This document shows positions 4,555-55,679 of a stretch of DNA of 64,000 nucleotides, in pieces. A model generated the notes under the pieces. The model had not been told where the DNA came from, did not search any database, and saw only the letters and a program-made list of their open reading frames with translations. Made by a program: the position numbers and the translations under genes. The stretch comes from Dictyostelium discoideum (lineage: Eukaryota), in NCBI GenBank assembly GCA_000004695.1, contig CM000152.2:2208001-2272000 (forward strand), in the 5' to 3' direction. Positions within the stretch are counted from its first letter, which is position 1, and the number at the start of each line of letters is the position of its first letter.

Positions 4555-6173
4555 ATGTCCTCTATTATATTTATTCCAAATGATGCTGATAATATAAATT
4601 CAATAATGGTAACAATTTCATCATCATTATCATTAGTAGGATGTTTATTCATTCTTTCTATTTATATTTATTATAAAGAGTTAAGGGAATTTCAACTTAA
4701 ATTAATTTTTATAATGACAATAAATGATTTTATAATTTCAATAATATTTTTAATAGCAACACATATCCAAACAAAATATTTTGACGCCATAACAAATGTT
4801 TTCCCCTTCTTTTGTAATTTCCCCGATTCATTATTACATTATTTTTTTTTATCTTCATTTTTTTGGGAAGTTTGTATTGCTCATACATTAATTCAAGGTA
4901 AATTAAAGTTAACTTTTTTTTTTTTTTAAAAAAAATAAAAAAAAAAAAAATCAAATACTAATTTTAAATTTAAAATATATTATTATTATTGTTATTATTA
5001 TTGTTATTATTATTATTATTATTATTTTTAGTTATAAAATATAATAATGATAAAGTTGAAGATAATTTAAAGAAATATTTTATATTTTCAAATGGACTTT
5101 CAGCATTAATAATGGTATCATTATTTTTTATAAGAAGTTATAGTAAAATCGATTGTCATCATGATTCAATCTTTCCCCATCTTTTATTCTTTATACCATT
5201 ATTGTTAACTTGGATTTACAATATTATAGTTTGTGCATTATTAACCAAAACATTTAAAGAACAAGCAATGAATTTTGGCTACTCTTTAGGTATTAATGGT
5301 GGTAGTGGTAGTTATATAAACTTTACTAATAACAATAGTATTGATAATTACTCAAATATAATCATTAAAAATGATTTAATAATAAATAATAATAATAATA
5401 TCAATGTCAATAATAATAATAATAATATAAATATATTATTTCATGTCAATGTCAATAATAATAATAACAAAATAATAATAGTTTAAATTTAATAATAGTA
5501 TTAATAATATAAACATTAATAGTATCAAAATAATGGTAGTAGTAGTGTTAAAATAATTCAAAGAAAAGAATTAGAAAAACACCAAATATAATATGGACAT
5601 CAATTTTCTTTTTATTTTCATTTGGATTCATTTGGTCATGGTCAATATTGGTGATAATATTGAAATATTTATCATTGGATGTAAAGTATATTCTAATGAT
5701 ATCCTATTTCTTTATTCCATTACATGGTTGTATGAATGCAGTTTGTTTTGGTGTAAATGATAGACTTAGAATGAATCTCAAGAAAAGTTGTAAAAATTAT
5801 TATTATAAATTTTTAGGTTTATTTAGTTTAGATAAAAGGAAATCATATGGTATAAATGGAAATAATAAAAATAATAAAAATAATAATGGGGCTAATTGTG
5901 AAGAAAGAAGTTTAATTGATTATTCTCCTGATGATGATGATGATGAAGATGATGATAATAATAATAATAATTATAGCGATGGAAATTATTATCAAATTCC
6001 TTCACCTTTTTTAATTGATAGTAGAAATTCTTCAAATTTAACAGATTATTCTGTAATTTTAGATAATAACAATAATAACAATAATAATGGTCCTTATAAT
6101 CCAACAAGATCTAACTCCATTACTGAATTACTTTATAATAATATAAATAGTTTAAATGCAATTAGAATTTTAA

Positions 6174-6242
<69 letters not shown>

Positions 6243-6319
6243 TCAATAATAATGATAACAATAATAATAATAATAATAATAATAGTTTTTGTACAATAGA
6301 TGAAGATGAAACCAAATAA
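4555..6319 (+). CDS. cAMP-receptor-like (cAR/Crl family) 7TM GPCR. Exons are about 4555..4897, 5032..(5290-5480), and (5564-5575)..6319; the second intron boundaries are unresolved.
   Basis: The three ORFs at 4555, 4989 and 5648 sit in three different frames and are joined by introns. Intron 1 has donor caag|GTAAAT at 4898 and acceptor ...attttTAG at 5030-5031 (phase 1), giving ...WEVCIAHTLIQG/VIKYNND. The product has 7 TM segments. Its TM3 (FFWEVCIAHTLIQVIKY) aligns to cAR1 CWLWTLCLAISIYMLIVK, and its TM7 (IPLHGCMNAVCFGVN) aligns to cAR1 LSVSHGFWASVTF. Intracellular loop 3 and the C-tail are poly-Asn rich. Stop at 6317-6319. Confidence 0.7.
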
Positions 6320-6565: not shown

Positions 6566-7872
6566 ATGGATAGAGTCAATTTTAGTATTGATCAATTATT
6601 AGAGGAAACCTCTAAATTGGTTTCATTAGGTATCATTAGTAAACAAGAATGTAAAGATATTATGAAAAAAAGAGAATATCATGAAATTAAAATTTTTAAT
6701 AGAAATTCTCATAAATCTGATTTCTTGACATACATCAAATATGAATTAGAATTAGATAGATTATTTCATAAAAGGGGTAAAGCTAAAAGTAAGTTTTCTT
6801 TTTATTTTATTCAACTTTAATAATATTAATTTTTTAAAGTTTGTATATGTTTTTTTTTTTAATATTAATATTCTAACAATTTTTATTTTATTTATTATTA
6901 TTATTTATTATTATTATTATTTTAAAGATATCGAGTTTGATTATCGTTTAAGATCAGCATTAAGACATGCAATTATATTATTTGGTAGTGCAACAAAGAA
7001 ATTCCCAAAAGATGAAGCATTATGGATTAATGCATTAAATATTAGAATGAAGAGAGCAAGTAAAGAAGGTACAGGTAGATTATTTTCAATTGCACTTTCA
7101 AATTTACCAAGATCAGCAAAACTTTGGAAATTAGCAGCAACATTTGAATTTGAAGTTAATAAAAATATTCAAAATGCTAGAAATTTAATTCAAGCTGGTA
7201 TTCAATTTAATAAAACTGATAAATCATTATGGCATTATTTCTTTTTAATGGAATTAACTTATATTTCATTATTATTTAGTGATATTACTTTTATTGATGT
7301 AAGTTTTTTTTTAAAAATAATGATAAAATAAAATAAAATAATTAATTTTAAAATTTAAAAGAAAAAAATTGAAGAAGAAGAAGAAGAAGCAATTAAATTA
7401 AATTTAGATAGTTTAAGAAAATCAGAAAAGATTGAGAAGGATGAATTCATTACATTTGGTAAAGAAATTTTAAGTGCAGATAAATTAAAACAATCATCAT
7501 TAATTAGAGGTCAAATCGCTCAAATCGTTTTTAGAAAAGCAATAAAGAGTAGTATTGGTCAAGATTTTGATTTTAGAAAACATTTTTATAAGATTGCCTC
7601 TAAATTTTTAGATATTGGAAAAGACTCTGAAAATCCAATGGGTGCTGGTGAATTACTTCAAAAAGAAATTTTGGAATCTTTAGTTACTGATTTCCCAAAT
7701 GATGATAAAACTTATATCTTTTTAGCTTCAATTGAACAATCAAAATCTTCTGAACCATCTTTATTAAAAAGATTAAATAATTCAACTAAAATTCTTAATC
7801 AAGGTTTAACTGTAATGTATTATAAATTTATAATATATAACGAATTAAATTATTTCTAATACATATATATAT

Positions 7873-7927
<55 letters not shown>

Positions 7928-8943
7928 TAGATTATTAAAAGTGAAAGTTATTTATTTAATTATATTCATTTTATTAGACAAATTATAGTTGATATTAAAT
8001 TAAAAGAAAATAAATTAATTGAAAATATTACAGATATTTTATTGAAAGCTTATAAATATTCAATTGATAATAATATATTAAAGGAAAGTGGTTATCAATA
8101 TTATATTGAATTATTATTAGAATTAGGTAAAACCAATGATGCAATTAAAGTTTCAGAAGAATCTGTTAAATTATTTAAAAATTCAAATCAACTTTGGAAT
8201 CAAAGAATTAATTTATTAATTAAAAATGAAATGGTTGTTAAATTATTTGATAATTTATCAAATAATAATGAATATAATAATATTGATAAATGTTTTGAAA
8301 TGGCAGTTAAGAATTGTACTTCTTCAACAACATCAACAACATCATCAACATCAACATCATCATCATCAAATTTATTCATTGAATACTTTAAATATCAAGT
8401 TGTTTTCAAATTTGATAAAGATTATAAAAAGATTGTAGATTTATTTGAAAAATTATTAAAACAATTAGATGGTAATGTTAAAGTTCAAAATACTCTTAAA
8501 AATTTCCTTTTAGATTATACATTTTTAAATTTACCAAAAGATAAATTAAAACAAATTTATCAATTGTAAGTAATTAATTTAATTTATAATAATAATAATA
8601 ATAAACCAAAAATCCAAATATTAACATTTAAGTATTTATTTATTTATTTATTTATTTTTTGGCAATTAGATGTTTTAATTATTTACCAATTTCCAAAGAA
8701 TTTTACCAAAAATGCATTTTATATGAAGAAGAAAGAATTGAAAAGAATATAAATGATATTAGATCATTGTATGAAAAATGTTTATCAATCAAAGAAATCT
8801 CATCAAAAGATGTTGATGTTTGGTTAAATTATAGAAATTTCGAATTAAAATCAGCTGGTGATATTGAAAGAGCAAATACAATTGCGACAAGAGGAAAGAA
8901 ATCCCTTGCTGATCCATTACCACTTCTCTCTCAATTACAATAA
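6566..8943 (+). CDS. utp6: U3 snoRNP protein UTP6 homolog (HAT-repeat protein). Exons 6566..6788, 6928..7298, 7362..7811, 7931..8565, 8670..8943, about 650 aa.
   Basis: The N-terminus MDRVNFSIDQLLEETSKLVSLGIISKQECKDIMKKREYHEIKIFNRNSHKSDFLTYIKYELELDRLFHKRGKAK matches the conserved UTP6 N-terminal domain (...LFS..EIK.IIKKR..LEYKI.RR...K.DF..YVQYE..L..L). The following HAT-like repeats (LWINALNIRMKRASKEGTGRLFSIALSNLPRSAKLWKLAATFEFEVNKNIQNARNLIQAGIQFNKTDKSLWHYFFLMEL) align with human WLSYVAFC...PALWIMAAKWE...LYKEYFRMEL. Donors are aaaa|GTAAGT (6789), gat|GTAAGT (7299), act|GTAATG (7812) and tt|GTAAGT (8566). Acceptors are at 6926-27, 7360-61, 7929-30 and 8668-69. Phases are consistent across all five exons. 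Confidence 0.75.
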
Positions 8944-9098: not shown

Positions 9099-9113
9099 GG
9101 GGGGGGGGGGGGG
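9099..9113. repeat. G15 homopolymer (aaaaGGGGGGGGGGGGGGGagagg) between the convergent 3' ends of utp6 and the 9133..10055 gene.
   Basis: Direct reading. It is the only long G/C homopolymer in the window. It reads G15 on the plus strand and C15 in the mRNA of the minus gene. Confidence 0.9.
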
Positions 9114-9132: not shown

Positions 9133-9617
9133 TTATGAATCGAGTGACACAGAAAGATCAACTATTTTTTTAATATTTTCTATTTTTGTATTAATTTGGT
9201 CAACTAAAACTGTTTTTTGTTTCTCTAAATCTGTTTCTTGTCTTTTTATCTTTTTATTTTCATTTAATAGCTATATATAGTTATAATTATTATTATTGTT
9301 ATTATTATTTTGGTTAATGTTAGTAACAAAAAATAATAAAAAGTAAAAATTAATAAGTAATTACATTTTGATAGATTTTTAATAATCTTTCCCTTTCAGT
9401 CATCTTTAAATCTATGATTTGTGACATTATTTGTTCTTCAGGATTAATTATACTTGATGGAGGTGCTCTTTTATCGTTGAGAATGGTTGGTTGTTCACGA
9501 AGTAATCTTTCTAATTCACTTAATCTAATTGAAATTTGTCTTTCTTGACATATTAATTGAAAATCACTCTATACAAATATATATGTATATATTAAAATTA
9601 AATAAAGTATTGTTAGT

Positions 9618-9661
<44 letters not shown>

Positions 9662-10002
9662 ATAAAAATAAAAATTATAATGATGTAAAATATATTACCT
9701 TTATTCTTTCTGATAAAGTTTGAAATACATTTGTATAAAGATAAGATAAAAATGATTTTGTATTTAAGTTATTATTATTTAAAGATGAGTAACAATCATA
9801 GAATTTCTGAAACGGTAATTCTGATAATGATTTATCTATTACTAAATCGTGAAACATTCTTAATTTTATCATTCTAATTCCTTCTATCTCTCCTGAAATA
9901 CATTTTAAAATGTCACTCTCACCAATTTCCAAATTTAATATACCTTTATCATAATCTACATTTAGTGTTGTGGTTTTTTCTATTGTATTATTACTTGTTT
10001 TG

Positions 10003-10042
<40 letters not shown>

Positions 10043-10055
10043 TATTATTATTCAT
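9133..10055 (-). CDS. Hypothetical protein of about 232 aa, with a globular N-terminal part and a coiled-coil C-terminus. Exons 9699..10055, 9365..9568, 9133..9270.
   Basis: ATG at 10055. Exon 1 is MNNNNSNN...TIEKTTTLNVDYDKGILNLEIGESDILKCISGEIEGIRMIKLRMFHDLVIDKSLSELPFQKFYDCYSSL...FQTLSERIK|, with donor aag|GTAATA. Exon 2 is SDFQLICQERQISIRLSELERLLREQPTILNDKRAPPSSIINPEEQIMSQIIDLKMTERERLLKIYQN|, with donor aat|GTAATT. Exon 3 is LLNENKKIKRQETDLEKQKTVLVDQINTKIENIKKIVDLSVSLDS*. All three are phase 0. No family assignment is possible from memory. Confidence 0.55.
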
Positions 10056-40349: not shown

Positions 40350-40373
40350 TGATATCCATGCCATTTAGTTTTA

Positions 40374-42583: not shown

Positions 42584-44903
42584 TTAAACTTGAAGTATCT
42601 TCTTTTGAATATGAATTACGTAAGGAGTCTTAATTTGATGAATGTAGGGTACAATAATTTTTACAAGTTTTGCGTGTTGAGTATCATTACTGACGTCCAA
42701 AGCGGTTTGGATCACGAAGTTGGCATATTTATCTTGAAGCAAACTGAGGATATCAGCTTCTGTCAAAGCCTTGATGATCAATTCATAGGTTGGAGTATCA
42801 GCCAATTGTAAACACTTTTCAATGACATTGGAGCTAAACTTTTGGATGGATAATTCAGCAATGTTATCTTTGAGTGAGACAATCAATTTTGAAGAGTAAG
42901 CTTTATTCTTTGAGAGGAGATGTTGAACGACATAGTTGCCAAATTGATCTTGTACCAATTTGAGGGAATGTTCAGTGATTTTATCGACCAATTTCTCTAG
43001 TTGCTCAGGATTGGCATTATCGATACAACGATTGACGACTGTACAGCCAACTTTATGGGTACAAATCTCCTCAATATTACCCATGATTGCATCACAAACA
43101 AATTGATTGACCTCTGGTGAAAATTGTTTCAAAAATGATTGAATCAAGTAGTTACCCTTGTTATCCTTTGATAATTGTATTACCTTACCCTTGATGGAGG
43201 CAATGATGGATTCGACTTGATCGGGTGAGAGGTATTGAAGTAGCTTTTGAATACCATGAATACCATAGACATGACAGGCAAAGGTCTCTACACTTGGAGC
43301 GATTTTGTCGACGATTTGTCTTCTTTGGTTGTTGTCGCAATATTTCATCAATTGTGGAATCAAGTATTGACCATATGGATCGATCATCAATTCGTTCAAA
43401 TGATCAAATACCTCGTTGAAAATCAATGTTACATGTTCAGAGTCTGGTTTCTCTTCCAATTTCTTTTGAAGGAATCTACAACCAGCTTGATACTTGGTAA
43501 GATGATAGATTTGACCAGTGATCTCTTCCAAACTTGTACACTTTGGATCTTGATTGTTCAATCCAATTGAACTCATTGATACTGATTTGGTCATTGGTTT
43601 TCTTGGTTGATGGTCGGTTGATTTCTTTGTTGGTGAAACAGAATCATCCTTTGTGCTAGAACCATTCATTCCACTTCCAATGTTACCAAGTGAAGAGTAA
43701 ACGTTGGTATTAATTTTGCCACCTGATAAATTTGGTAATCCAGTGGAGATTGAGTTGGCAGATGAACTTAAACTACCATTGTTTGGTTTAATGTTACTAA
43801 AACTTATATTACTGTTACTATAGTTGTTATTATTATTATTATTATTACTAGCAAGGTTTGGTTTATTTGGTGATTTTAATGATTCGCCATTTAATTTACC
43901 GGCGATTACTGGCATCGATGGTGATTTTTTCATTTTACCTCCACTTGGTTGGAATGATGTTGGTGTAGTGGTTGTGGTTGTGGTTGATGGTGAAGTTGAT
44001 GATAATGGTGTGGTGGTTGTAGTTGATGGAGATACAATATTGCTTGATGTATTTGGTGAAGATTCGTTTGAAAAACCTGGTGGGATTATTGAAGTTAATC
44101 CACTACCAGATGTATTTAATTTTCTTGGAGATTTGAATGGGGCTTGTGTATTTGGTGTTGTATTAGTAGATGTTGCTGGTGATGAGGTAGATGATGAAGT
44201 TGATATTGAACCACCAGATGAATTTAATGAGGATGGTGTAGAAGATGATGATGGATGTCCAATTGGTTGTTGTTGTTGTTGTGTTTGTTGTTGTGATGAT
44301 AATGGTAAAACTGGAATTGATGGAACAGATTCAACCTTTCTTGGAGATCTTAATGGTGGAAGTGATCCTGAAATTGAAGAATTTGCTGCATGTGTTGAAA
44401 AAAATGAATTTAATGGTGTAGGTGACATTTGTGATGGTTCAACATCTCCTAAAAAAACAAAATTTTGAATTGGTCCTCCAATATCTGGTATTCTTTTTTG
44501 ATTGTAATCATCTAAAAAAAATTTATTTTTTAATTAGTAAAAAAAAAAAAAAAATTAAAAAATTAAAAAAATAAAATAATTTACATACCAACTAAAAATG
44601 ATTTACCAAGATTAGATTCAGAGAATACCATTCTCATCATACTCATTAAATTATCATCTTTTGAATTTACAATGATTGATTTTAATCTTTGGATAATTCC
44701 TCTATATTCGTGTGTTTGGTTATTTTCCAAATCGATATTGTTGTTGAATAATTCACCACCACCTAAATGAGGTGCACCAATTGGTTGTTGTGGTTGCATT
44801 ATATTTTGTGAAAATTCTTTTGTTTTGTTTTTATCAAATTTTTTTAAAAAATCTATTATCGATGAATGAAAAAAAAATATTTGAAAAATAATTTTTTGTT
44901 TTT

Positions 44904-44941
<38 letters not shown>

Positions 44942-45245
44942 TTCATAAATGTGTGTTAAGTTGTGGTGTGTGTGAATGTATGTGTTTAATTAAAAAAATA
45001 TATATTTATAAAATTATTGGTATTAGTATTTATATTTAATTTATAAATAATATTTCAATCAATCATTGAGTTATATTATTAGACATACCTGATGTATAAA
45101 CTATTTTTTGCTTTCTATCTGAATCATCAAAACCAGTATTGTTGTTATCATCTTGCAAACTTGCAGATGAAAAGTTTTGAATGTTTGGACTTTCAGTTTT
45201 ATTGTTTAAAACTTCTGTCATTGCGAAAAAAAACCTAGGATCCAT
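42584..45245 (-). CDS. Pumilio-family (PUF) RNA-binding protein (about 780 aa). Exons 45089..45245, 44589..44852 and 42584..44511.
   Basis: The C-terminal about 330 aa hold 8 Puf repeats, for example GQIYHLTKYQAGCRFLQKKLEE, FNEVFDHLNELMIDPYGQYLIPQLMKYC, GNYLIQSFL and QFGNYVVQHLL. Upstream is an S/T/N-rich region. Exon 1 is MDPRFFFAMTEVLNNKTESPNIQNF...IVYTSG|GTATGT (an in-frame stop lies just upstream of the ATG). Exon 2 (acceptor aatAG at 44853-54) is DFLKKFDKNKTKEFSQNIMQPQQPIGAPHLGGGELFNNNIDLENNQTHEYRGIIQRLKSIIVNSKDDNLMSMMRMVFSESNLGKSFLV|GTATGT. Exon 3 (acceptor ttttAG at 44512-13) is DDYNQKRIPDIGGPIQNFVFLGDVEPSQMSPTPLNS..., running to the stop at 42584. Phases check. Confidence 0.8.
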
Positions 45246-45575: not shown

Positions 45576-45959
45576 AAATTATGAAATTATAGTAATTGGA
45601 ATATTATTAAACAAATGTATTATTATTTTTATTATTTATATAAAAAAAAAAAATAATGAAAAAAAAATAAAAAATAAAAAAAAATAAAAAAAAAAAAGGT
45701 ATGAAAATTTTGAGACAATGCCAAAATATTTAAATATCTGAGTTATCTAAAATGAAAAAAAAAAAAATGAAAAAATCTATTTTTGATTATTTTTGGGAAA
45801 AAAAAAAAAAATAAAATAAAATTATTTTTGCTATGAAATCAAGTTATTATTATTTTTATATATGATAATATTATAGGAAGTAATTTTATAAAATAGTAAT
45901 AATAATATTGTTGTTGTTGTAGTTGTTGTTCTTTTTATAATTGATTATTGTTATTTTGA

Positions 45960-49246: not shown

Positions 49247-49826
49247 TTAACCATCAACTTTTAATTTTTTATTTTGATTTTCGGCTTCGTTGTTATTATC
49301 GCTTAGGATACTAATAATAGGTTGAGGATTGGAATTTAATTGACTACTATCTCTTTTGAGAGAGGATGTTGGTGATAATAGTGAGGAAGAAGAGGAAGAA
49401 GAAGAAGTTGGGGAAGAAGTAGGTGAAACCTGTTTCTCATCAATAACACATTTAACATGAATAATTTTTTTAGTTTTATTATCAATTTGAACTCCTCTAT
49501 ACATCCAATCCTCCGACTCTCCATCCCAAAACTTTTCAAACTTTTCTCTACATACTGGACAACTTGTTTGATCATCATCAGCAACCAATGTTGGCTCGAT
49601 CTTTACTTCAACTTCTTTTTTGGTATCATTAAAAAATGGAATTGCTAATTATTATTATTATTATTTTTTTTTTTTCCAATTACAAAATTTTAAAAATAAT
49701 TTAAATTTAAATATAAATAGAATATTAAAGATATTAAAATAATAAGGGCATAAAATTTTAAAATAATTTAAATATAAATATAAATAGAAATATTAAAATA
49801 ATAAATATAAATTTTAAAAATAATAT

Positions 49827-49865
<39 letters not shown>

Positions 49866-50303
49866 AAAGTATTAGTTTCAAAAATTTATTTTTAATATTA
49901 TTATTATTAATTGTTAATTGTTAATTATTACTTACAAGGTTGCTCAGAGATATCGATGGATGGATCAAATTTAAAACCTATCCAAGATTCTTCTGGTAAA
50001 TACCAAGCTCTTGACATTGGATGTTTAGCACGTTTCTTTATTCTTTGATTGACTTTATAATGATGGTCCATGTGTTGATCCATTTTGTCTTGAGTTTTAA
50101 ATCTAGCTGAACATGTTTTACATTGCAATGGATAACCTTTATAAAGATCTTCATATAAACTATATTCACTCCTTTAATATATCAATTTTAAATAAAATTA
50201 AATAAATAAATAATATTAAAAAAAAAATTAAAAAAAAATTAATATATGGGTTGTATTAAAAATAAATAGTGTAAATAAGATTTGTCTTTTTCTCTTTCCC
50301 TTT

Positions 50304-50340
<37 letters not shown>

Positions 50341-50572
50341 AGATTTACCAAAAAAAAAAAAAATAAAATAAAAAAAAAAGAGGAAAAAAAAAGAAAAAAA
50401 AAAAGTAAAGAATAGTGATACACATATTATATATATATGAATGAAAATATGCAAAAATAAATACTTTTTATTATCAATTGATCCAGATTTGTTGAAATTT
50501 GATTCAATTGACAAAGGGGATTGAGAAGGAGACATTGATGATCTAAGGTTATTATTATTATTATTGTTGTTA

Positions 50573-50664
<92 letters not shown>

Positions 50665-52333
50665 ATTGATATTATTCATCATTGGTAAATTTGTTGATAG
50701 TTTTGGCTCGCCTAATTGATATTTATCTTGAAGTACTTTAAAATCAATTTTAAGTTTATTATATTGTTGTGGGGTATGTGGACCTTTAAACAAAGTGTTT
50801 TTAAGTTGTTGAAGGTAATTTTTTAATTCGTCAATTCCACTCTTCTCAGATGGTAGTCCTTCAAAAAACTCAATCAATGAAAAGAAATAATTTTGATCCA
50901 AAGTAATTTGTTGTGTATTGATGATTTGTTGAGGTTGTTGTTGAGGTGGTGTTATTTGTGACAATGGTGGAGATTGTGTTGCCTTTGGTATCATTGGGAA
51001 ATTAATATTTGCAATACTTGCAAAATATGATGGAATTGGGCTATTGTTACCTTTATTAAAATTATTATCCATATTTGGTGAATTATTATTGTTTGGGTTA
51101 TTCATATTAAACATATTATTATTATTATTATTCATATTATTATTATTATTCATATTATTATTATTATTATTCATATTATTAATATTATTATTCATATTAT
51201 TATGATTATGATGATTATGATTATGATTATTCATATTATTGGGCATATTTTGATTATAAAAGTTATTTGGCATATTATTGTTATTGTTGTTGTTGAGGTT
51301 CATTGAATTCATTCCTTGGTTTCTATTCATGATATTTTGATTATTATTCATATTGTTCATGATATTTTGATTATTGTTCATCATTCTATTGTTGTTCATA
51401 TTGTTCATCATGTTTTGATTATTGTTCATCATATTCATATTGTTCATATTACCCATATTATTCATTCCATTCATCATATTCATATTATTGTTATTATTAT
51501 TCATACCGTTCATACCGTTCATATTATTCATCATATTATTATTATTATTGTTATTGTTATTATTCATATTGTTATTATTATTAAATCCAAAATTTTGAGG
51601 AGCGCTTCCTTTAAATCTTGGATCGATTGGTTGTGGTTGTTGATGAAAGTTTGGATTACCTTGCATTTGATTTTGAGTGTTGAATGGTCTTTGTTGTTGG
51701 TTTGGGTTATTATTACCTTGGTTTTGGAATGGTGGTTGTTGTTGTTGTTGATTAATGGATGGTCTTTGTTGTTGATTTGGATTACCTTGGAAATTAACTT
51801 GGTGTTGAGGGGTTGGACTAACTCTATTTTGAAGTTGTTGTTGTTGTTGCATTGGTTGTTGTTGTTGTTGTTGTTGAATTGGCTGTTGTTGTGTTGGCTG
51901 TTGGTAGGTTGGTTTATTTGAAGTAGGGAGTGGTCTGCTACTAGTGCTGCTACTGGTGCTAGTGTTGTTGCTACCACTTTGCTTTTTTGGGAACATAATA
52001 GCAATTCTTTCAAATTCACTTGAAAGTTGTTGTTGAATTTGAGTTAAAAGAGCAGAATTGACCAAGGATCTTTCTTTCCAAATATTATAAAGGTTTAACA
52101 TTGATGACTTGGTTTGATCGTCAAAGCCTTGGAATGAGCTTACATAGATATCGACAATATTCTTTGAAAATATGGAATTGTAAACTTTGCTAACATTTTT
52201 ATTCAACGAGTCTAAAAGGTAAATTGAACATAATTTTGTTTTTGGTAATGCACTCTAAATGAATTTTAAAAAATTATAAAATTAAAAAAAAAAAAAAAAA
52301 ACATAAAATAAAATAAAAAATTAAAATAGAGAG

Positions 52334-52364
<31 letters not shown>

Positions 52365-52974
52365 AAAAAATAAAACAAAATCAAATATTAGAATCTACTT
52401 ATGTAATATACATATATTACTTATTTATCGTTACAATCTCATATATATATAAAAAAAAAAAAAAGAAAAATCAATTTAAATTATAAGAAAAAAAAAAAAA
52501 AAAGAAATAAATGGTTTTTATTTCTCATTATAATTTTTTTTTTTTGTTTTTTTTTTTTTTTTTTTTTTTTTTGTTTTTTTTTTTTTTTTTTTTTTTTATT
52601 ATTATAAAATTGTATTTCTTTGTTTTGTTTTGTTTTGTTTTGTTTTATTTGTTTATTTTTTTTTTTACTGTTATTTAAAATAATTACCTCTTTTATTTTT
52701 TCCTCTACCATTGTGGCAATTTCATTAGCTATAACTTTATAGATTGCTGATAATTGAGTTAAATCCTTTATGATAATTGCATCGTTGGTCTTTAAGTTGC
52801 TAACTTTGCTCTAAATTCATTAATCATATCAGTGTGAGATTTCTCTTCCATTCTTCCACCTCTAAAACTACTACTGTTATGGTTGTCACTACTACTATTG
52901 GAACTATTTCTTTGTTGCGATGTTGGTTGTTGTGTTTCTACTACTCCTACTGATACTTGTGGTTCTTCTGTCAT
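49247..52974 (-). CDS. pcf11: Pcf11-like mRNA cleavage/polyadenylation factor (about 900 aa). Exons 52688..52974 (contains a frame discontinuity), 50465..52254, 49936..50171 and 49247..49644.
   Basis: Exon 1 begins MTEEPQVSVGVVETQQPTSQQRNSSNSSSDNHNSSSFRGGRMEEKSHTDMINEFRAKLAT, then hits TAA at 52794-92. The +2 frame reads SKVSNLKTNDAIIIKDLTQLSAIYKVIANEIATMVEEKIKE|GTAATT; the human CID begins SLEDLTFNSKPHINMLTILAEEN. Exon 2 (acceptor tttAG at 52255-56) is SALPKTKLCSIYLLDSLNKNVSKVYNSIFSKNIVDIYVSSFQGFDDQTKSSMLNLYNIWKERSLV, comparable to human PCF11 KLPVMYLMDSIVKNVGREYLTAFTKNLVATFICVFEKVDENTRKSLFKLRSTWDEIF (the CID), then long Q/N/P-rich low complexity up to ...SIESNFNKSGSIDNKK|GTATTT. Exon 3 is SEYSLYEDLYKGYPLQCKTCSARFKTQDKMDQHMDHHYKVNQ..., the first Pcf11 zinc finger. 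Exon 4 is SIPFFNDTKKEVEVKIEPTLVADDDQTSCPVCREKFEKFWDGESEDWMYRGVQIDNKTKKIIHVKC..., the C-terminal zinc finger, with stop at 49247. Confidence 0.7.
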
Positions 52975-53385
52975 TATAAAAAAAGGCCCTATAAAAATAT
53001 AAAGAATATAAAAAAAACACTAATATAAAACAAATAAAAAGAATTTATTTTTTGTTGATACTAGTGTGGAAAATTTTGAAATAATAAAAAAAAAAATTAA
53101 AAAAAAAAAAAAAAAAATTAAAAAAATTCAAAAAAATTCAAAAAAAAAAAAAAAAAAAAAAAAAATTTAAAAAAAAAAAAAAAAATAATTAAAAAAATAA
53201 ATAAAAATCTAAATTAGGTGAGTAAATTTTGTTAATCCAAAAATAAAAAAATAAAAAAATAAAAAAAAAATAAAAAAAAAATAAAAAAAAATAAAAATAA
53301 AAATTTCCATATTTGTTTAAATAAAAAAATAAAAAAATAAAAAATAAAAAATAAAAATTTATATATAAATGTTAAAAAATAAATG

Positions 53386-55213: not shown

Positions 55214-55679
55214 TTGTGCAAATGAAATTAAAAATGAAAAAAAAAAAAAAAAATGGAATGAAAATTAAAATAAATAGAATTTTTTTTTTTTTCAACAACC
55301 ACTTCGTCTGGGGGATTCTGATATTAAAAAAAATAAAAAATAAAAAAAAAAATTAAAAAAAAAAAAAAAAAAATTAAAGATTAAGATTTTAATACCTCCT
55401 CCTTTTTTGTTTTTTCAAAAAATTATTTATTTTTTTTTTCAAAATATTATCTAGTCTGATTGTTTTATCTTTTTTTTTTTTTTTAAAACAACTGAAAATC
55501 ATTTTGGAAAATAAGAGTTTTTTTTTTTTTTTTTAATAAAAATAGAAACAAGAAAAAAAAAACAATAAAACAAAAAAAATCAATATTCTGAAAATTAAAT
55601 TCTACCTTTATTTTAATTTATAAAATTAAATTCTTAATTCTTTATTTATTTATTATTTTTTTTTTAAATAATTAAATCC

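Follow-up and report, generated by a model that had tools for sequence, protein, structure and literature searches.

A single missing base interrupts the CID-coding first exon of Pcf11 in a Dictyostelium discoideum chromosome 3 record and is very probably a technical dropout

Results and Discussion

Structure of the Pcf11 locus

The window, that is, the whole stretch of 64,000 nucleotides analysed here, is Dictyostelium discoideum chromosome 3 DNA and carries on its minus strand, at 49247-52974, a single, ordinary Pcf11 orthologue; Pcf11 acts as a factor at the mRNA 3' end and in termination. Splice sites fitted by reference to the T. lacteum orthologue define four exons. Exon 1 (52688-52974), which contains a break of the reading frame, is followed by intron 1 (52255-52687; 433 nt, 90.8% A+T, GTAATT...TTTAG) and by exon 2 (50465-52254), which starts with SALPKTKLCSIYLLDSLNKNV and encodes helices alpha4 to alpha8 of the N-terminal CID and then a long Gln/Asn/Met-rich low-complexity region. 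Intron 2 (50172-50464; 293 nt, 87.7% A+T, donor GTATTT) leads to exon 3 (49936-50171) with the first zinc finger and the Clp1-interaction motif, and intron 3 (49645-49935; 291 nt, 93.8% A+T, GTAAGT...AATTAG) to exon 4 (49247-49644), which encodes the C-terminal Pcf11-type zinc finger, the tail and the stop codon. With one base added where the two reading frames of exon 1 overlap, the product comprises 903 aa. About 41 uninterrupted Asn codons are found in exon 2 (50540-50665), between the CID and the zinc-finger region. This run and the long Asn/Met/Gln-rich stretches are the same in the two D. discoideum assemblies compared below and are typical of low-complexity coding sequence in Dictyostelium.

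The Pfam CID model PF04818 matches residues 53-168 of the repaired protein with 46.4 bits (cut-off 23.9) and covers profile positions 2-119 of 120. Without the upstream part, the downstream frame reaches 43.7 bits; with a start at Met88 the score is 36.8 bits. The yeast Pcf11 CID chains 1sz9 and 2bf0 align to residues 50-157 (E ~2e-12), with no gap at 60|61. In an AlphaFold2 model (mean pLDDT 86.5), residues 1-46 are disordered and are followed by eight helices, the first of which, alpha1, is predicted for residues 47-59 with pLDDT values of about 88-98. The best PDB matches of this model are structures of the yeast Pcf11 CID (1sza, 1sz9, 2bf0), with TM(target) values of 0.84-0.90 and an rmsd of 1.2-1.5 A. 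By prediction, the eight-helix right-handed superhelical fold of the CID is present. Further downstream, the Clp1-interaction model PF11526 (Pfc11_Clp1_ID) is marginal in exon 3 with 24.5 bits at a cut-off of 24, and the C2H2-like finger preceding it reaches 19.9 bits with PF13912, under the cut-off of that model. In exon 4, PF23228 (zf_PCFS4) scores 45.3 bits (cut-off 27) and PF21936 (Pcf11_C) 20.5 bits, under its cut-off of 26.7. As to an Rna14/Rna15 (CstF-77/64)-binding region, the sole non-repetitive segment of the central region matches no Pfam model.

This architecture corresponds to that of yeast Pcf11 and human PCF11 (cleavage factor IA/CFIIm), which likewise have an eight-helix N-terminal CID, a Gln/Asn-rich stretch after it, and a Clp1 motif flanked by C-terminal zinc fingers. 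The arrangement described for ScPcf11 (PMC5159653) is the same as in our model. D. discoideum Pcf11 differs from the yeast and human proteins in a 46-residue disordered extension preceding the CID and in a much longer Asn/Gln/Met low-complexity middle, as is typical of Dictyostelium, and its coding sequence in the window is interrupted by a missing C, unlike that of yeast and human.

Two overlapping reading frames in exon 1

On the minus strand, ATG 52974-52972 starts a 60-codon ORF (MTEEPQ...DMINEFRAKLAT, with EFRAKLAT as its last residues), which stops at TAA 52794-52792. This ORF (52792-52974) is the true N-terminus of Pcf11 and encodes the disordered, Ser/Asn/Gln-rich residues 1-46 and helix alpha1 (residues 47-59) of the CID. 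The remainder of the exon (52688-52810), encoding the alpha1-alpha2 loop, alpha2 and most of alpha3, carries SKVSNLKTNDAIIIKDLTQLSAIYKVIANEIATMVEEKIKE in the -1 (equivalently +2) frame and is open in no other frame. According to the AlphaFold2 model, alpha1 is located wholly inside the 60-codon ORF and helices 2-8 are encoded in the other frame. The -1 frame stays open between 52810 and the donor GAG|GTAATT at 52688, where the exon ends, and the earliest ATG, GTG or TTG codon in it is ATG 52711. The two open frames share 16 nt, 52810-52795 (A GCA AAG TTA GCA ACT TAA).

A first-pass annotation of this DNA had described the same 60-codon ORF and an overlap of about 16 nt, and our analysis reproduces both. 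It had also stated that the remainder of the CID is open only in the +2 frame, which is correct, and that this frame is closed upstream by a TAG at 52803-52801, which is not: the TAG is found at 52813-52811, 10 nt away.

Over 52690-52989 the GC content is 0.30-0.38 without interruption and in both flanks it is below 0.15, so that the region constitutes one exon-like block. Of the 62 exon-like blocks of the window, 52 have one frame that is open over 94% or more of the block, as compared to 64% for the block of Pcf11 exon 1. The break is therefore unusual for the window and not a matter of chance stops.

The two frames might be explained without any defect in the sequence if the 60-codon ORF were a uORF or a separate small gene and Pcf11 started downstream, or if an unusual intron removed the stop codon. 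ATG 52711 does exist in the downstream frame, and 56 GT..AG pairs formally join the frames, e.g. CAA|GTATCA...ATTTAG|AGC, resulting in MTEEPQ-SKVSNLK. However, all of these bridging introns have an A+T content of 65-69% and poor donors (GTATCA, GTAGGA), as compared to 88-94% and GTAATT, GTATTT or GTAAGT in the real introns, and they would delete helix alpha1, which is conserved from dictyostelids to yeast and contains the invariant Leu58. Moreover, composition is exon-like throughout the exon 1 block, and the de novo annotation of an intact allele in an independent assembly (see below) has its start at ATG 52974 and an unbroken exon 1. We thus regard an intron or a downstream start as very unlikely. 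The earlier statement that no intron fits the junction stands, whereas the alternative N-terminus proposed along with it finds no support, given the start codon used by the intact allele and the conservation of alpha1.

Homology extends across the junction

A full scan with HMMER resulted in 490 relatives with an E-value <=0.001. The top three are the dictyostelid orthologues of Tieghemostelium lacteum (KYR02391.1), Acytostelium subglobosum (XP_012760213.1) and Heterostelium album (EFA78650.1), which in an alignment of 26 sequences are 37-44% identical to the repaired N-terminus. Domain order is the same as in D. discoideum Pcf11; the proteins are annotated as 'ENTH domain-containing protein' or hypothetical protein. 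In all three the CID is coded in a single frame, unlike in the window, and two RNA-seq contigs of T. lacteum, in which the 703-aa ORF is complete, confirm the Pcf11 mRNA of that species. The three orthologues have the motif D[MI]xxEFxxxLxxLxxNDAIxI in common, which is collinear with DMINEFRAKLAT|LKTNDAIII, the bar marking the break. In tblastn, residues 2-45 of the T. lacteum protein match frame -1 of the window up to 52801 and residues 43-90 match frame -3 from 52810. The A. subglobosum protein switches frame in the same way, its residues 13-36 matching the upstream frame up to 52801, and the orthologue HSPs in frame -3 run from 52810 or 52807 to about 52682. Such a switch, here at 52801-52810, is the classic mark of a frameshift. 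The family alignment of 26 members gives the register: the upstream frame contributes the invariant Leu58 (TTA 52803-52801) and the downstream frame the near-invariant Leu61 and Asn64, and the spacing between the two Leu codons is 5 nt in the window where 6 are required.

Concerning the gene neighbourhood, Pcf11 is followed on its own strand by a PUF-repeat gene (42584-45221, minus strand) both here and in T. lacteum, so that the two regions are partially syntenic. The D. purpureum neighbourhood of the ligase that adjoins Pcf11 in D. discoideum is not syntenic; the ligase is followed there by Tfb2, with no adjoining Pcf11.

A frame switch of this kind could also be made by the cell, if programmed -1 ribosomal frameshifting or transcriptional slippage joined the two frames and the genomic sequence were correct. 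As at known programmed -1 sites, the downstream ORF is indeed in the -1 frame and begins before the upstream ORF has ended. The shift site is at the stop codon, and the product would be exact to one residue. Unlike such sites, the junction has no slippery heptamer of the form X XXY YYZ in the 16-nt overlap and no stimulatory structure: the 126 nt from the site have a minimum free energy of -14 kcal/mol as compared to a shuffle mean of -13.3 (z = -0.24). Nor is a shift conserved, for the sequence is in one frame in the sister D. discoideum assembly and in the three dictyostelid orthologues. Programmed frameshifting is close to refuted as an explanation.

An independent assembly contains the intact allele

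The window encodes exact RefSeq proteins of strain AX4, XP_641684.1 (DDB_G0279533) and the AMP-binding ligase adjoining Pcf11. In an independent D. discoideum assembly, GCA_054883475.1 (CM142509.1), the gene beside this ligase is annotated with a 903-aa product and the same bounds. Comparison of the lesion site reveals GCAACCTTAAAG in GCA_054883475.1 and GCAAC-TTAAAG in the window; in a wider alignment, GCAAAGTTAGCAACCTTAAAGACC is opposed to GCAAAGTTAGCAAC-TTAAAGACC. On the minus strand the site (52796-52797) reads AAC|TTA in the window and AACCTTA in GCA_054883475.1, i.e. the window is without one C of a CC pair, adjoining C52796. The missing C turns ACC TTA AAG (Thr60 Leu61 Lys62) into ACT TAA AG. 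When the locus of GCA_054883475.1 is spliced at the exon boundaries of our model, its translation is exactly the repaired 903-aa protein. Its exon 1 is uninterrupted, and the de novo annotation of this intact allele starts at ATG 52974 and continues through exon 1 without a gap. Otherwise the Pcf11 exons, including the remaining ~2.7 kb of coding sequence, are identical between the assemblies, and the other differences within the gene are lengths of intron homopolymers. The 1-nt indel that had been suspected around 'gcaacttaaagacc' is therefore confirmed as exactly one C, which is present at that spot in GCA_054883475.1. The same comparison, together with the collinearity of the Pfam CID, the yeast structures and the dictyostelid orthologues, bears out the view that there is one gene and not two. 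A decayed pseudogene was considered and rejected: there is one lesion only, the remaining 2.7 kb of coding sequence do not differ from the intact allele, and every domain can still be recognised.

The two assemblies were compared over three stretches, about 57-59 kb of the window, in which they are 99.2-99.6% identical. Nearly all of the differences concern the length of homopolymers or are A/T changes, and they lie in A+T-rich non-coding DNA. Recently, Nanopore plus Illumina de novo assemblies were reported (2025; PMC12745789), and identity between AX4 and AX2-214 was 99.5% at another chromosome 3 locus. Since the window encodes exact AX4 RefSeq proteins and the ~99.5% identity matches the published figure, we infer that the two assemblies are the AX4 reference (the window) and AX2-214 (GCA_054883475.1).

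At most of the sites that differ in length, long homopolymers are shorter in GCA_054883475.1. In the opposite direction, 14 bases are present there and missing from the window: 11 in a patch at 5433-5553, the Pcf11 C, a G at 55467 and one base of a T-run at 45767. The patch (plus strand) lies inside the gene at 4555-6319 and comprises seven small indels in ~130 nt, with 11 bases missing and a 4-nt stretch found only in the window, which is thereby net 7 nt shorter. It splits an ORF that is continuous in GCA_054883475.1 (545-aa product) into 4989-5486 and 5648-6319 in different frames, and looks like a low-quality assembly patch. At 55467, the window is without a G (GA-TAAAAC as compared to GAGTAAAAC). 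The site belongs to the intergenic DNA some 300 nt before the start codon of the ligase and is the sole other non-homopolymer single-base dropout within the 15.8 kb around Pcf11.

It could be argued that the window is right and that the extra C is an insertion error in the long-read assembly GCA_054883475.1, which clearly miscounts long homopolymers. Outside 5433-5553, however, it has only three bases in ~59 kb that the window lacks, and the chance that a random insertion falls into the 16-nt zone in which it restores a frame flanked on either side by conserved residues at the spacing of the orthologues is ~3 x 16 / 59,000, i.e. <0.001. In addition, GCA_054883475.1 would have been built from Nanopore and Illumina reads if it is, as it appears, one of the assemblies of PMC12745789. 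An insertion error is thus extremely improbable.

Cause of the missing base

The remaining alternatives are a base lost by the record and a base lost by the organism. In our assessment the missing C is very probably a technical single-base dropout in sequencing or assembly, in a gene that is otherwise ordinary and intact. One C of the CC pair in codon 60 would have been lost while the record was sequenced or assembled; this loss would create the immediate TAA and move the rest of Pcf11 into the -1 frame, and the organism itself would have an unbroken exon 1 and make the normal protein of 903 aa. The case resembles known single-base indel errors in reference assemblies, which result in apparent frameshifts or pseudogenes: the break is isolated in an otherwise conserved and intact gene of an essential type, an independent assembly of a near-identical strain has the intact sequence, and the window contains a second cluster of ORF-breaking dropouts. 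Most of the differences between the assemblies are technical, because they are too many to be explained by mutation between two sister laboratory lines, and the patch at 5433-5553, which breaks a second ORF, shows that the assembly of the window does drop single coding bases. Against a technical origin, the affected CC is a run of only 2 nt and not the classic homopolymer context of such errors; in typical reference indel errors a long homopolymer is affected.

Alternatively, the deletion could be real and recent, a 1-nt loss private to the sequenced laboratory clone, which would then carry a frameshifted Pcf11 allele. Axenic laboratory lines accumulate private mutations, which counts in favour of such an event, and so does the fact that the break is truly in the sequence and that the rest of the gene is undamaged, as expected of a very young lesion. 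A real deletion would leave a 60-aa peptide only, or else an 815-aa protein made by reinitiation at ATG 52711 (Met88). The latter would lack CID helices 1 and 2 and part of helix 3. As a Met88 start keeps only positions 39-119 of the CID profile, with the first two helices and half of the third lost, the resulting CID would be unlikely to fold. Yeast cells cannot live without the N-terminal domain of Pcf11 (PMC5159653, citing Sadowski et al. 2003), so that its loss in a laboratory strain would be unexpected. Further points against a real deletion are the intact allele in an assembly that is 99.2-99.6% identical, the overwhelmingly technical nature of the differences between the assemblies and the second patch of evidently technical coding indels. 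We consider a real deletion unlikely. Slightly less probable still is its strongest form, namely that the widely used strain of the record has the single-C deletion and lives without a functional Pcf11 CID; survival would then depend on reinitiation at Met88 or on low-level unconventional -1 decoding at ACU-UAA. A sequencing or assembly error had been the first of the causes listed in the first-pass annotation, and our analysis likewise favours it over a mutation of the strain.

Representation in databases and consequences for annotation

Homology searches and exact look-ups in protein collections revealed no D. discoideum protein for the Pcf11 locus, although the neighbouring AX4 proteins are present there. 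By exact look-up, neither of the short ORFs (60 and 76 aa) was present, nor was the variant starting at Met88 or any of three full-length versions of the repaired protein. Word-indexed searches, in which the repaired CID or the zinc-finger region of the C-terminus served as query, likewise gave no match. A missing protein entry fits with annotators of the reference having met the same break and is silent on its cause; in the reference annotation, Pcf11 may be marked as a pseudogene or have no protein assigned. A scan of metagenomes for either allele of the site gave no match, and the literature searched held nothing usable on dictyBase notes about frameshifts or reference errors, on the assembly accession or on the annotation name of the gene.

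If the missing C is a technical dropout, the value of the observation is mainly one of curation. D. discoideum Pcf11 should be modelled as a 903-aa protein from four exons with an intact CID, and the record needs one C put back beside 52796. Uncorrected, it leads to Pcf11 being missed or truncated in orthologue inventories of the 3'-end machinery, in the design of knock-outs and CRISPR experiments and in proteomics databases. The second broken ORF at 5433-5553 shows that dropouts recur in this assembly; they can be found systematically by comparison with newer long-read assemblies. If, on the other hand, the lesion were real, it would be a naturally occurring Pcf11 allele without a CID, whereas yeast cannot dispense with the N-terminal domain of this factor, and would bear on the dispensability of the Pcf11 CID in an amoebozoan.

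Other sites in the window

No tRNA or other overlapping features were found in the window. Besides the two indel lesions, the sole coding difference in the compared stretches is a G/A difference at 8886, in the last exon of a UTP6-like gene, which is synonymous (GCG and GCA both encode Ala). At 40372, the assemblies differ by 1 nt in the length of a short T-run directly upstream of the ATG of Solute_trans_a, i.e. in the 5' leader, and coding is unchanged. At 9099-9113, a run of 15 G in the window is opposed to 11 G in GCA_054883475.1. It is situated in the short spacer of the converging UTP6-like (6566-8943, plus strand) and Nnf1-like (9133-10055, minus strand) genes, and is the sole G/C homopolymer of at least 8 nt in the window, the G+C content of which is 21%.
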